Source of the DNA: Candidatus Anderseniibacteriota bacterium
GTDB lineage: Bacteria > Patescibacteriota > Andersenbacteria > UBA10190
Reading direction: 5' to 3'
Assembly: GCA_040900375.1 (NCBI GenBank)
Contig: JBBDZC010000015.1
Span: forward strand, 8,366-72,365
DNA: 64,000 nt
A program made the translations under genes and the position numbers. Positions 6,309 through 62,594 of this stretch are shown here, in pieces (within the stretch, counting starts at the first letter, position 1; each line of letters starts with the position of its first letter). The notes beneath the pieces were generated by a model. That model ran no database searches. It saw only the letters and a list, made by a program, of their open reading frames with translations, and was not told the DNA's origin.

Positions 6309-6382
6309 ATATGTCTTTGCCCGCTCTTAAAATAAATTCTGACAACAACCAACCTCTCTCTCTACTCTTGTACGCCCCAAAT

Positions 6383-6533
6383 GTCAACCCATTCGACTCC
6401 ACGGTCTAAAGGCCGTGGCTTGCTTAAGGGTTGACTCTAAAGCCGCGCGTATCTCCACCCTGAAGGGTGGAGCTTGCGCGAGTCGAAGAGTCAACCTGAG
6501 TTAGTCGAAGGGTGAGCCGATCGAATGGGTAAG
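6383..6533. repeat. nested-palindrome repeat family, copy 1 (MITE/REP-like)
   Basis: core 6383-6496 is essentially identical to 58634-58746 and related to 17310-17418. Contains hairpins ccaccctgaagggtgg and gggttgactct...agagtcaacc, plus terminal inverted repeat cccattcgac...gtcgaatggg. Confidence 0.7.
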
Positions 6534-16663: not shown

Positions 16664-17470
16664 TTAAGGTGAAGCGCGGGCTCGCCTCGCCGAAGCCTTA
16701 GGCGAAGGGCGGGTCTCTAATGGGGTCAAAACCGCGCGGACAGGAGCGCCATCGAGATCCACCGCCAAGGGCAGGCAGAGTAGTTCATAGTCTCCTGCTT
16801 CCACCTCTGCCAACCACAATCCTTCGATAATTATAATCCCGGCGTCGAGTAACATTTTATGGACGGTATCGCGAACACCTCTTTTCTTGACTGACGGCCC
16901 GTCAATACCGACGAGTTTTACTCCGCGCGCGACCAGCTCTTTGGCCGCACTTTCTGCGAGTGCCACAAAGTCGGGATCAAAAATTTCGAGTGAACCGGCA
17001 GAATTACTAGTTTTAAAGAGCACGCGCTCACCGGCAACCGGCGGTATATCGGCTGCGACAATAGTGTCAGCAGTGGCCGTAAGATCAATCACGACGCAGC
17101 GTCCACATAACTGTTCTAATGAATACATTGCCGTACCATGACCCCTGGGTGTTATGTGAGCCGGGGCGTCAATGTGGGTACCGGTATGAGAACCTAAAAT
17201 TATTTGCGTTAATGCACTCGAGGTAGCTGAAGCTTGCGCATGCGGTGTTAGGTGCACCGGAGGATTGCCAGGGTAAATAGCCAGGCGCTCATTAATCGGC
17301 CGGGTGATGTCAACCCATTCGGCGCCCCGGTCTTTTAAGACCGTGGTTTGCTTAGGGGTTGACTCTGAGCGTTTATCTTTGCCCTGAAGGGCCGAGCTGG
17401 CGCGAGTCGAAGAGTCAATCATTTTTTCCCTTAACGGCATGTCCTCCAAATTCCCGGCGCAGCGCCGCAA
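16664..17470 (-). CDS. cyclase-family protein (kynurenine formamidase-like metal-dependent hydrolase)
   Basis: HTGTHIDAPAH cyclase motif. Start uncertain: the M-initiated start MIDSS is at 17422 and its first codons lie inside repeat copy 2, but an upstream alternative start at 17470 is possible. Confidence 0.7.
   Translation of the reverse strand: MRRCAGNLEDMPLREKMIDSSTRASSALQGKDKRSESTPKQTTVLKDRGAEWVDITRPINERLAIYPGNPPVHLTPHAQASATSSALTQIILGSHTGTHIDAPAHITPRGHGTAMYSLEQLCGRCVVIDLTATADTIVAADIPPVAGERVLFKTSNSAGSLEIFDPDFVALAESAAKELVARGVKLVGIDGPSVKKRGVRDTVHKMLLDAGIIIIEGLWLAEVEAGDYELLCLPLAVDLDGAPVRAVLTPLETRPSPKASARRARASP
17310..17418. repeat. nested-palindrome repeat family, copy 2 (diverged)
   Basis: gtcaacccattc...ccgtggtttgcttaggggttgactct...gccctgaagggc...gagtcgaagagtcaa aligns with copies 1 and 3, with compensatory changes in the central hairpin. 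Confidence 0.6.
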
Positions 17471-32229: not shown

Positions 32230-32360
32230 ATAAAAGTCACCACGGGCGGGACACCCGTGGTATCGGGGGACTTTTGTCTGCGGCGTGCCGGCTCCGCCGG
32301 GACAGTGACAAAGCCTTTCATCCTCGGGCTTACGCCCAAGATCTTACGGGCTCTAGATAA
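32230..32360 (-). ncRNA. candidate structured RNA, paralog A of a two-copy family (unknown class)
   Basis: reverse complement is about 85% identical to 62392-62522. Differences in hairpins are compensatory or G-U wobble only when read on this strand. Confidence 0.4.
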
Positions 32361-32486
32361 ACACCGTCTCGTAAGCATGACCAGTGTGTATTTGCCTCAC
32401 TTGCCCCAGATAAAAACAAGTTTTCGCCCGTAAGCTCGCTCGCAAATATGAAGCTGTCCCCGCTAGGTTACGCGGGGTATTTGCGG

Positions 32487-58552: not shown

Positions 58553-58633
58553 GACTCCCTCCTGCCTTAAGTTAAACCCGCGGTTTCTAACGAACTACTC
58601 CGTAGTACTGTCATAACTTTGAGAAAACAAAAA

Positions 58634-58746
58634 GTCAACCCATTCGACTCCACGGTCTAAAGGCCGTGGCTTGCTTAAGGGTTGACTCTAAAGCCGCGCG
58701 TATCTCCACCCTGAAGGGTGGAGCTTGCGCGAGTCGAAGAGTCAAG
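58634..58746. repeat. nested-palindrome repeat family, copy 3
   Basis: identical to copy 1 core over about 113 bp; intergenic. Confidence 0.7.
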
Positions 58747-61924: not shown

Positions 61925-61966
61925 GATTTTAGATCTGACAACAATCCTTTGCACATTTTAGGCCAA
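61925..61966 (+). promoter_or_regulatory. candidate sigma-70 promoter with extended -10 for the SWIB gene
   Basis: TTGCAC …19 nt… TGcTAGAAT about 55 nt upstream of the ATG at 62020. Confidence 0.35.
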
Positions 61967-62019
61967 AAAGTGCTAGAATGGCGATTAGAGGGACTTACCA
62001 ATTAATAACTATATAAAGT

Positions 62020-62274
62020 ATGGCAGAAACCAATGCAGCGTTTATGAAGCCAATGACAATCAGCGATGAGCTAGCTGTCGTAGTTGGCAAGGGGCCCATG
62101 GCTCGGTCGGAAGTGGTGAAGAAACTGTGGGAATACATTAAGAAAAACAACCTTCAGGATCCGGCCAATAAGCGTAATATCAACGCGGATGAAAACCTGA
62201 AAAAGGTATTTGGTGGCAAAGAGACCGTCAATATGTTTGAAATGACCAAGCTCGTTTCAAAACACCTGTCCTAA
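62020..62274 (+). CDS. SWIB/MDM2-domain protein
   Basis: full-length SWIB pattern (…LAVVVGKGPMARSEVVKKLWEYIKKNNLQDP…). Confidence 0.8.
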   Translation: MAETNAAFMKPMTISDELAVVVGKGPMARSEVVKKLWEYIKKNNLQDPANKRNINADENLKKVFGGKETVNMFEMTKLVSKHLS

Positions 62275-62391
62275 GCGCGGCCACCCTAGTCTCAGGTCCG
62301 CCCTCAAAATACAAGTACCTCACGGCGGATTTTTTGGCTCCACGGAGTCGGAAGAAAGTTCGAATCAAGCTGACATTGCATAAAAAGCTAA

Positions 62392-62522
62392 TTTATCTGG
62401 AGCCCGTAAGACCTCGGGCGTAAGTCCGAGGATGAAGGGCTTTGTCACTGTCCCGGCGGAGCCGGCACGCCGCAGACAAAAGTCCCCCGATACCACGGGC
62501 ATAAGCCCGTAGTGACTTTTAT
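62392..62522 (+). ncRNA. candidate structured RNA, paralog B of a two-copy family (unknown class)
   Basis: about 85% identical to the reverse complement of 32230-32360. Hairpins CCUCGG-N8-CCGAGG, CGGCG-N9-CGCCG, ACGGGC-AUAA-GCCCGU and long-range GGGCUUUGUC/GACAAAAGUCCC. Confidence 0.4.
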
Positions 62523-62594
62523 AATGCCAAAGAAATCAAAAACCGCCTCCCTTCCTAGGTGAGACGATTTTAGTGTTGCTCAAAAGACTAGTTA

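Follow-up and report, generated by a model that had tools for sequence, protein, structure and literature searches.

A 126-nucleotide intergenic repeat of a Candidatus Andersenbacteria genome with the anatomy of a gene-less IS200/IS605-family derivative

Introduction

Palindrome-associated transposable elements (PATEs) are derivatives of insertion sequences (ISs) of the IS200/IS605 family that consist of the ends only (Dyall-Smith et al. 2011, PMC3119063), and they are also known from Geobacillus (PMC10055086) and Halanaerobium (PMC7290912). Meers et al. described ends-only 'PATE-like' elements that are mobilized in trans (PMC10055086). Here we analyse a repeat at positions 62392-62522 (+ strand) of a 64,000-nucleotide (nt) stretch of DNA from a Candidatus Andersenbacteria genome (the window), which an initial annotation made from the sequence alone had described as a structured RNA-like element downstream of a SWIB gene. 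We consider it likely that the repeat is a non-autonomous, gene-less IS200/IS605-family derivative, that is, a PATE and ordinary selfish DNA.

The way in which such ends are recognized is known from IS608 of Helicobacter pylori. On the left it is cleaved at TTAC, a motif that is not part of the element and is found 19 nt 5' of the left hairpin; on the right the motif is TCAA, the last bases of the element, 10 nt 3' of the right hairpin (PMC3201880, PMC5934647). The guide tetranucleotides that read these motifs stand directly 5' of the hairpin feet, AAAG on the left (CL TTAC with GL AAAG) and GAAT on the right (CR TCAA with GR GAAT), and the pairings A+16:T-3 and A+17:T-4 give a rule in which motif bases C1, C2 and C4 pair with guide bases G2, G1 and G4, and C3 forms a non-canonical pair with G3 (PMC3201880, PMC5934647). 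For ISGst2, which is associated with TnpB2, the transposon-adjacent motif (TAM) is TTTAT and the transposon-encoded motif (TEM) is TTCAC (PMC10055086).

Results

A repeat search of the window returned an inverted pair, 32254-32361 and 62392-62499, of 108 nt at 95% identity. Pairwise alignment showed that 62392-62522 (+; copy B) and 32230-32360 (−; copy A) are two copies of one element, with identity running from TTTATCT to GTGACTTTTAT, so that the initial annotation was right to place two members of one family here on opposite strands, and right that this is not a simple repeat. A 20-mer from the element core had exactly two occurrences in the window and none in 100 shuffles of it, and a covariance model built from the two copies scored each of them at 165 bits and found no further match inside the window. 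With the boundaries set out below, the element proper spans 62397-62522 in copy B (126 nt, top strand +) and 32230-32356 in copy A (127 nt, top strand −). It contains no conserved coding open reading frame (ORF), only chance ORFs of 45-58 amino acids that differ between the copies.

A third copy, copy C, emerged when a six-frame translation of the element was compared with 5.8 billion protein clusters. The only match was P0157, a partial methyltransferase that begins with 26 residues translated from the 3' half of the element. P0157 itself was not located on a contig sequence; its accession lies 236 away from those of the window proteins, which places copy C in the same metagenome-assembled genome (MAG; protein accessions MEX1997801 / MEX1998037). 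Copy C stands at the very start of a 10-kb contig of this MAG that begins inside the element, directly upstream of the methyltransferase coding region. Three Logan contigs from the source sample (SRR27977660) all break within the element core. Together with copy C, these breaks indicate that the element is an assembly-graph repeat; judged from sequence, there are at least three copies in this genome, near-identical over their comparable parts. Their contexts differ: copy A has an RRM protein gene on one side and a small membrane ORF on the other, copy B separates the convergent genes for SWIB and SRPBCC, and the 3' flanks of the three copies diverge from the first base after TTTAT (AATGCC, CTACAG and the H-Q-A codons of P0157).

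The anatomy of copy B (all on the + strand) is that of a transposon reduced to its ends. Identity with copy A starts at TTTAT (62392-62396), the putative target motif (TAM) and left cleavage site, which by the rules of the family lies outside the element; the equivalent TTTAT at the left end of copy A (32357-32361, −) was placed by sequence, alignment and the guide rule. After the boundary comes a 15-nt leader ending in the left guide AAGA (62408-62411), directly 5' of the foot of the left subterminal hairpin, CCTCGGGC-GTAA-GTCCGAGG (62412-62431). This 8-bp hairpin appeared in every fold and carries three one-sided, pair-preserving changes relative to copy A. It is followed by ATGAA (62432-62436), by a G+C-rich interior of 52 nt that is identical in copies A and B (62437-62488), by the right guide GATA (62489-62492) and by the right subterminal hairpin, CCACGGGC-ATAA-GCCCGTAG (62493-62512), which formed in both RNA and DNA folds. 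A 10-nt tail (62513-62522) consisting of TGACT and TTTAT, the latter being the putative right cleavage motif (TEM), completes the element, which stops after 62522, where the flanks diverge.

The two hairpins lie on the same strand and resemble each other (CGGGC-GTAA-GTCCG and CGGGC-ATAA-GCCCG, 12 of the central 14 nt being identical), and their distances from the boundaries are asymmetric, 15 nt on the left versus 10 nt on the right. Terminal inverted repeats are lacking, as the first 25 nt (CTGGAGCCCGTAAGACCTCGGGCGT) and the last 25 nt, reverse-complemented, do not match. Both known left ends are preceded by TTTAT and all three known right ends close with it, with no variable target duplication. 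Under the IS608 rule, AAGA pairs with TTAT as T-A, T-A, A.G and T-A, and the TTTAT at 62392 is the first match to the four-base rule upstream of the left hairpin; GATA pairs with TTAT as T-A, T-G (a wobble), A-T and T-A, and this match ends exactly at the last base of the element. Each guide thus pairs at the three canonical positions, with a single T-G wobble between them. Boundaries at TTTAT, the lack of terminal inverted repeats and of an ORF, the paired hairpins and the fit of the guides together point to an IS200/IS605 element consisting of ends only. Every line of the original definition of PATEs (PMC3119063) also describes this element: it lacks terminal inverted repeats, has similar near-terminal palindromes, makes no target duplication, is too short for a transposase gene, has the longer spacing on the 5' side and uses a target of 4-5 nt.

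Ends of the same kind were found on elements that carry tnpA or tnpB genes. Beyond the window, the covariance model gave weak matches at two contig ends. One was the start of a contig of the CG10 Andersenbacteria MAG, a contig that extends further in its JGI version (locus L053); there, a gene whose product matches Pfam Y1_Tnp (IS200-like transposase, E = 3e-8) over its last 65 residues has its stop codon 8 nt ahead of the match. The sequence reads CCACGGCC-GTAA-GGCCGTGG-GTGTCTAT and then flank, and this IS200 right-end hairpin scored 14.1 bits against the left-hairpin part of the model and matches both hairpins of the element. A second sample has neither gene nor hairpin at this locus (L052) and shows an empty site in which ...TTCTAA is directly followed by AAAGTACCC (L053 1-240 against L052 7300-7400). 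This presence and absence identifies the match as the right end of a polymorphic IS200-type insertion. The CCACGG..CCGTGG stem of the element's right hairpin is the one that adjoins the stop of the IS200-type tnpA in L053, and it is also found at the right ends of three further loci, L107, L113 and L106.

These three came from a scan of viral contigs for a CCACGG hairpin followed by NTGAA (CCACGGNCN{4,5}GNCCGTGGNTGAA), which imposed neither TTTAT nor the A of ATGAA. The scan returned 16 loci, compared with about 2 expected by chance, a rough estimate of our own extrapolated from the number of matches to an earlier pattern. In 8 of the 16, the flank ends in TTTAT and is followed by 16-18 conserved bases ending in AAAA, a CCACGGNC hairpin and ATGAA; the pentamer after the left hairpin was the same in all 8 left ends of TnpB elements compared. 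A complete tnpB is present in L107 (= L110), L113, L106 and L105, and an N-terminal tnpB fragment, cut by the end of the locus, in L104 (called by Pfam OrfB_IS605, Cas12f1-like_TNB and HTH_OrfB_IS605). The right ends of the L107 type (L107, L113 and L106) read GAAG-CCACG...CGTGG-AGCATTCAC, and identity stops after TTCAC. With TTTAT at one end and TTCAC at the other, these elements match the published TAM and TEM of ISGst2 exactly. Our element shares its left-end architecture with the tnpB elements L104-L107, L113, L115 and L117; the likeness is one of architecture and short motifs, with no long identity, and these loci belong to other genomes.

The second covariance-model match, aligned over the whole model, was at the far end of the Logan contig whose start lies in copy B; this far end is about 7 kb past the right end of the window. 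This end (L098 1-161, −) has a hairpin near its 5' end followed by CTGAA, and a second CCACGGCC hairpin near its 3' end; its interior is unrelated and longer. Similar ends around different interiors are as predicted for transposon ends and the opposite of what would be expected of a functional RNA. In detail, L098 shows TTTTAC, 16 nt ending in AAAG, CCACGGGC-GTGAA-GCCCATGG, CTGAA and, further on, CCACGGCC-TTTGA-GGCCGTGG, and the Logan contig ends inside it. We also noted a gene-less two-hairpin element of about 115 nt and the same architecture in L102 (5545-5700, −; IMGVR_UViG_3300027896_005848). It runs from TTTAT through a leader ending in AAGA, a hairpin, TTGAA, AGGG and a second hairpin to GTATCTAC, and lies in a long intergenic region of a contig with a DnaB-like helicase gene.

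Applied blind to seven other independent ends, the IS608 rule picked the observed boundary motif every time (7/7). The left ends gave guide AAAG with motif TTAC (L098), AAGA with TTAT (L102) and AAAA with TTAT (L107 family and, separately, L105); the right ends gave AGGG with CTAC (L102), AGAA with CTAT (L053) and GAAG with TCAC (L107 family).

On the model of the family's 'peel-and-paste' pathway, the element could be moved as follows. Exposure of the top strand as single-stranded DNA, as at a replication fork, would let both subterminal hairpins fold, and a dimeric Y1 HUH transposase (TnpA) provided in trans would bind them. AAGA and GATA would pair with the TTAT of the flanking TTTAT on the left and of the terminal TTTAT on the right, and cleavage would fall exactly 3' of each TTTAT. 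The element would leave as a single-stranded circle whose junction joins ...GACTTTTAT to CTGGAGCC, the donor would be resealed as TTTAT plus flank, and the circle would insert 3' of another TTTAT without target duplication. The parent IS would be expected to carry TTTAT, a CCNCGGGC hairpin and ATGAA. A TnpA is presumably encoded in this genome, and the copies may be mobile now or may have been so formerly.

The folding that drew attention to the locus is real. Copy B folds better than its shuffles on both strands as RNA (z = -4.0 and -3.5) and with DNA parameters (z = -3.5). All six A/B substitutions in predicted helices keep pairing through G-U or G-T, which suggests that the + strand of copy B is the structured or constrained one. 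The helices named in the initial annotation, GGGCUUUGUC/GACAAAAGUCCC enclosing CGGCG/CGCCG, are indeed complementary and lie in the interior, but as a fold they reach -41.4 kcal/mol against -55.1 for the minimum free energy fold, and are thus about 13 kcal/mol less stable. The pseudoknot proposed there between GUCACU and AGUGAC is an ordinary nested helix in the minimum free energy fold. In both copies the 3' hairpin and its U-run look like an intrinsic terminator, and incidental effects on transcription are therefore possible. We considered a K-turn or loop-E reading of the GUAAGA/AUGAA internal loop and dropped it, since ATGAA is a conserved feature of transposon ends. The best-supported reading is that the structure first noticed would mostly be a pair of transposase-binding hairpins acting in single-stranded DNA.

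The interior may be a remnant of the 3' part (scaffold) of a parent IS. The last ~85-86 nt of the element, with a long stem enclosing a GC hairpin and then the right-end hairpin, have the topology and length of the 3' region of L107-type tnpB elements, the region that encodes the omega-RNA and whose structure is supported by covariation; the two regions may be homologous.

The site next to the SWIB gene seems to have no special meaning. The SWIB ORF occupies 62020-62274 (+), its stop lies 117 nt before 62392, close to the 120 nt first given, and a TG-extended -10 promoter-like site is present upstream at 61950-61979, where a candidate had been proposed. Between the stop and the element, and outside the latter, the sequence shows a likely SWIB terminator (62298-62342, +), a UCCGCC...GGCGGA hairpin followed by UUUUUU; our terminator scan missed it because its 21-nt loop exceeds the limit of the scan. 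The genes upstream of both copies have their own terminators. The initial annotation had tied each copy to a gene for a small DNA- or RNA-binding protein. This link does not hold: copy C adjoins a methyltransferase gene, the neighbours differ from copy to copy, and neither the SWIB loci nor the SRPBCC loci of relatives contain the element. On the transposon reading, copy B is an insertion into a convergent intergenic region, its placement is incidental and there is no functional linkage to the SWIB gene. No strictly orthologous empty site was present among the loci of relatives, and what may hint at mobility is the dispersal of at least three copies over unrelated contexts and the absence of the element from those loci; only the L053 insertion showed a presence/absence polymorphism. 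The SWIB and SRPBCC proteins are identical to proteins encoded on a 94-kb contig of an NCBI Candidatus Andersenbacteria MAG, and exact look-ups of the SWIB, SRPBCC and RRM proteins returned only Logan contigs of the same sample. On the other side of copy B, between the element and the convergent SRPBCC gene, a CGCCTC...GAGACG hairpin with T-runs on both strands (62545-62575) looks like a bidirectional terminator.

Searches for the element elsewhere returned chance matches or nothing. Rfam 15 gave no match to the whole window at the gathering score and, for the local region at E up to 10, one 12-bit chance hairpin (E = 4.7). A scan of genome contigs with AAAAGTCCCCCGATACC, a pattern that represents the variable stretch 5' of the right hairpin, gave 44 matches, all by chance. 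In metagenome contigs a 22-mer of the core had no match and a left-end pattern had 2 chance matches, and scans of viral contigs with element-specific patterns gave chance matches only. Two other candidate explanations were set aside: a template or variable repeat of a diversity-generating retroelement, as the differences between copies are not adenine-specific, and a riboswitch or 5' leader, as copy B faces a convergent gene.

Two further observations concern repeats in the window. Copies A and B are inverted repeats 30 kb apart that enclose housekeeping genes (BipA, DEAD-box helicase, MurJ and a penicillin-binding protein), and recombination between the copies could invert the segment. A single inversion between the copies was considered as the cause of gene-order differences from the CG10 genome and rejected, as the orders do not fit one inversion. 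A second family of structured intergenic repeats of about 116 nt is present on the + strand at 6379-6494, 17307-17418 and 58630-58745. Its units begin with CCC directly after GTCAA and end with AGAGTCAA, a hairpin, CCACGGTC-TAAA-GGCCGTGG, stands 11 nt after the 5' GTCAA, three base pairs have changed on both sides, and there is no Rfam match. GACT before the hairpin fits the IS608 rule for TCAA. This family is probably another ends-only IS200/IS605 derivative.

Discussion

The case for an ends-only IS200/IS605 derivative is built on features that can be read directly from the DNA, namely the boundaries, hairpins and spacing, the complementarity of guides and cleavage motifs, the copy number, the varied contexts, and the ends shared with elements carrying tnpB or tnpA. 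The initial annotation had named, as the finding that would overturn its proposal, that the sequence is part of a larger known element; in spirit this is what we found, the repeat being the ends-only version of a known element type. Its view of a structured RNA with paralogs survives in part, in that there is a multicopy, structured family with hairpins constrained on one strand, whereas the proposal of a small RNA (sRNA) gene tied to SWIB and RRM genes, or derived from a 3' untranslated region, is not supported.

Several points weigh against our reading. The left boundary is based on two copies. The right cleavage motif is the same as the target motif (TTTAT), unlike in ISGst2-like elements (TTCAC versus TTTAT). 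Neither tnpA nor tnpB occurs in the 64-kb window or in about 14 kb of other contigs from the same sample (L098-L100), no pair of empty and filled sites was found for this element, and exact-pattern scans, whose limits may explain the result, found no homolog of the whole element outside this MAG. A milder oddity concerns orientation, which is usually biased in this family. GC skew is negative in every 4-kb step of window positions 1-64000, and most genes are on the − strand; this uniform skew implies that the window belongs in its entirety to one replichore, whose G-rich strand here is the − strand, and relative to the skew copies A and B are oppositely oriented. Excision from either strand has been reported (PMC10055086).

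One alternative is that the element is an orphan omega-RNA gene, in which a transcript through the right end would have the interior and right hairpin as its scaffold and the flank as guide for a TnpB encoded elsewhere. PATEs often encode omega-RNAs that are acted on in trans (PMC10055086), the last ~86 nt match the 3' region of L107-type tnpB elements in topology and length, full-length relatives with this left end carry tnpB, and TTTAT is a known TnpB TAM. However, a terminator-like hairpin and U-run lie before the would-be guide, and the element lacks the two upstream hairpins seen in the 3' region of the L107 type. With TTTAT as both TEM and TAM, TnpB would recognize its own locus, whereas published elements have a TEM that differs from the TAM (PMC10055086). 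The window also holds no tnpB, and the element has no convincing promoter. We regard this explanation as unlikely. It is likewise improbable that the element has become a domesticated or active RNA gene, either an orphan omega-RNA-like scaffold (~85 nt plus the right hairpin) that a TnpB-family nuclease of this bacterium of the candidate phyla radiation (CPR) would use in trans, or a mobile terminator or sRNA module. If it had, the RNA would guide the nuclease to the junction of the element itself, as the right motif equals the TAM, and such self-targeting or copy control would be unusual.

The reading from which the analysis started, an independent family of small regulatory or protein-binding RNAs, or of sRNAs derived from 3' untranslated regions and linked to genes for nucleic-acid-binding proteins, now appears quite unlikely. 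The strong folds, the pair-preserving substitutions with G-U pairs on one strand and the terminator-like 3' hairpin with its U-run in both copies are what such RNAs would show, and weak -35-like hexamers (CTGACA and TGGTCA) lie at equal distances upstream of both copies. However, conservation stops 5 nt upstream of the first helix and includes no conserved -10 element, no Rfam family matches, the same pentamer stands at both boundaries, and the ends match transposon ends in detail. The association with particular genes fails for copy C and in relatives, both upstream genes have terminators of their own, and relatives with similar ends (L098 and L102) have unrelated interiors, the opposite of a conserved RNA core.

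A very unlikely variant of the transposon interpretation would assign the copies to a domesticated REP-associated tyrosine transposase (RAYT, or TnpA-REP) rather than to an IS200-type transposase, making them akin to repetitive extragenic palindromes (REPs). Hairpins are recognized by Y1 enzymes of both kinds, several unrelated repeats of this genome contain CCACGG hairpins, and of the L053 transposase only the C-terminal 65 residues are known. However, REPs are single palindromes of 20-40 nt that usually occur as inverted doublets, whereas here direct hairpins delimit a unit with TAM, TEM and IS608-type guides, and the same ends flank tnpB genes. A classical miniature inverted-repeat transposable element, with a DDE transposase that prefers TTTAT as its target and duplicates it, would account for TTTAT on both sides of the unit but is extremely unlikely: terminal inverted repeats are lacking, every copy has the same pentamer where ordinary target duplications would vary, and only a single-strand mechanism explains the geometry of hairpins and guides.

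An ends-only IS200/IS605 derivative, most likely a known kind of selfish DNA, is of interest mainly for correct annotation, as dispersed, well-folding intergenic repeats in CPR genomes can pass for new structured RNAs. Such elements can be recognized from their boundaries, hairpins and the complementarity of guides and cleavage motifs, and the guide rule predicts the targets: that of this element should be TTTAT, and that of its neighbour outside the window TTAC, which is present there. On this reading, a reduced genome of the Patescibacteria carries at least one and probably several families of miniature single-strand transposons, and these fragment assemblies.

Among known systems, the element is closest to PATEs, with which it shares the lack of terminal inverted repeats, target duplication and protein, two similar palindromes, the longer 5' spacing, the 4-5 nt target and copies that are more than 90% identical where comparable (a 'homogeneous PATE'). 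It differs in its host, one of the Patescibacteria (CPR), in its length of only 126 nt, in a right motif that equals the target motif and in having no parent IS or transposase in the available sequence. The literature searched contained no description of PATEs in Patescibacteria, which is a weak basis for novelty. With ISGst2-type elements and L107, L113, L106 and L105 it has in common the TTTAT target, a leader of 15-18 nt, a purine-rich guide (AAAA or AAGA), an 8-bp CCNCGGNC hairpin, ATGAA and a right hairpin with a 9-10 nt tail; unlike them it has no tnpB, an interior of about 50 nt where theirs measures about 1.1 kb, a tail ending in TTTAT rather than TTCAC, and U-A instead of A-U as the third pair of the left hairpin. 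Like REPs and bacterial interspersed mosaic elements with their RAYTs, it comprises short extragenic hairpins in many copies of a kind recognized by a Y1 HUH enzyme, but those repeats are single palindromes, often in inverted pairs, without units delimited by TAM and TEM. Finally, it agrees with IS608 in its subterminal hairpins on the top strand, 5' guides that follow the same rule, a right motif 10 nt from the hairpin foot and a left motif outside the element, and departs from it in the motifs (TTTAT/TTTAT instead of TTAC/TCAA), the left spacing (15 versus 19 nt), perfect stems without an extrahelical T and the absence of genes.

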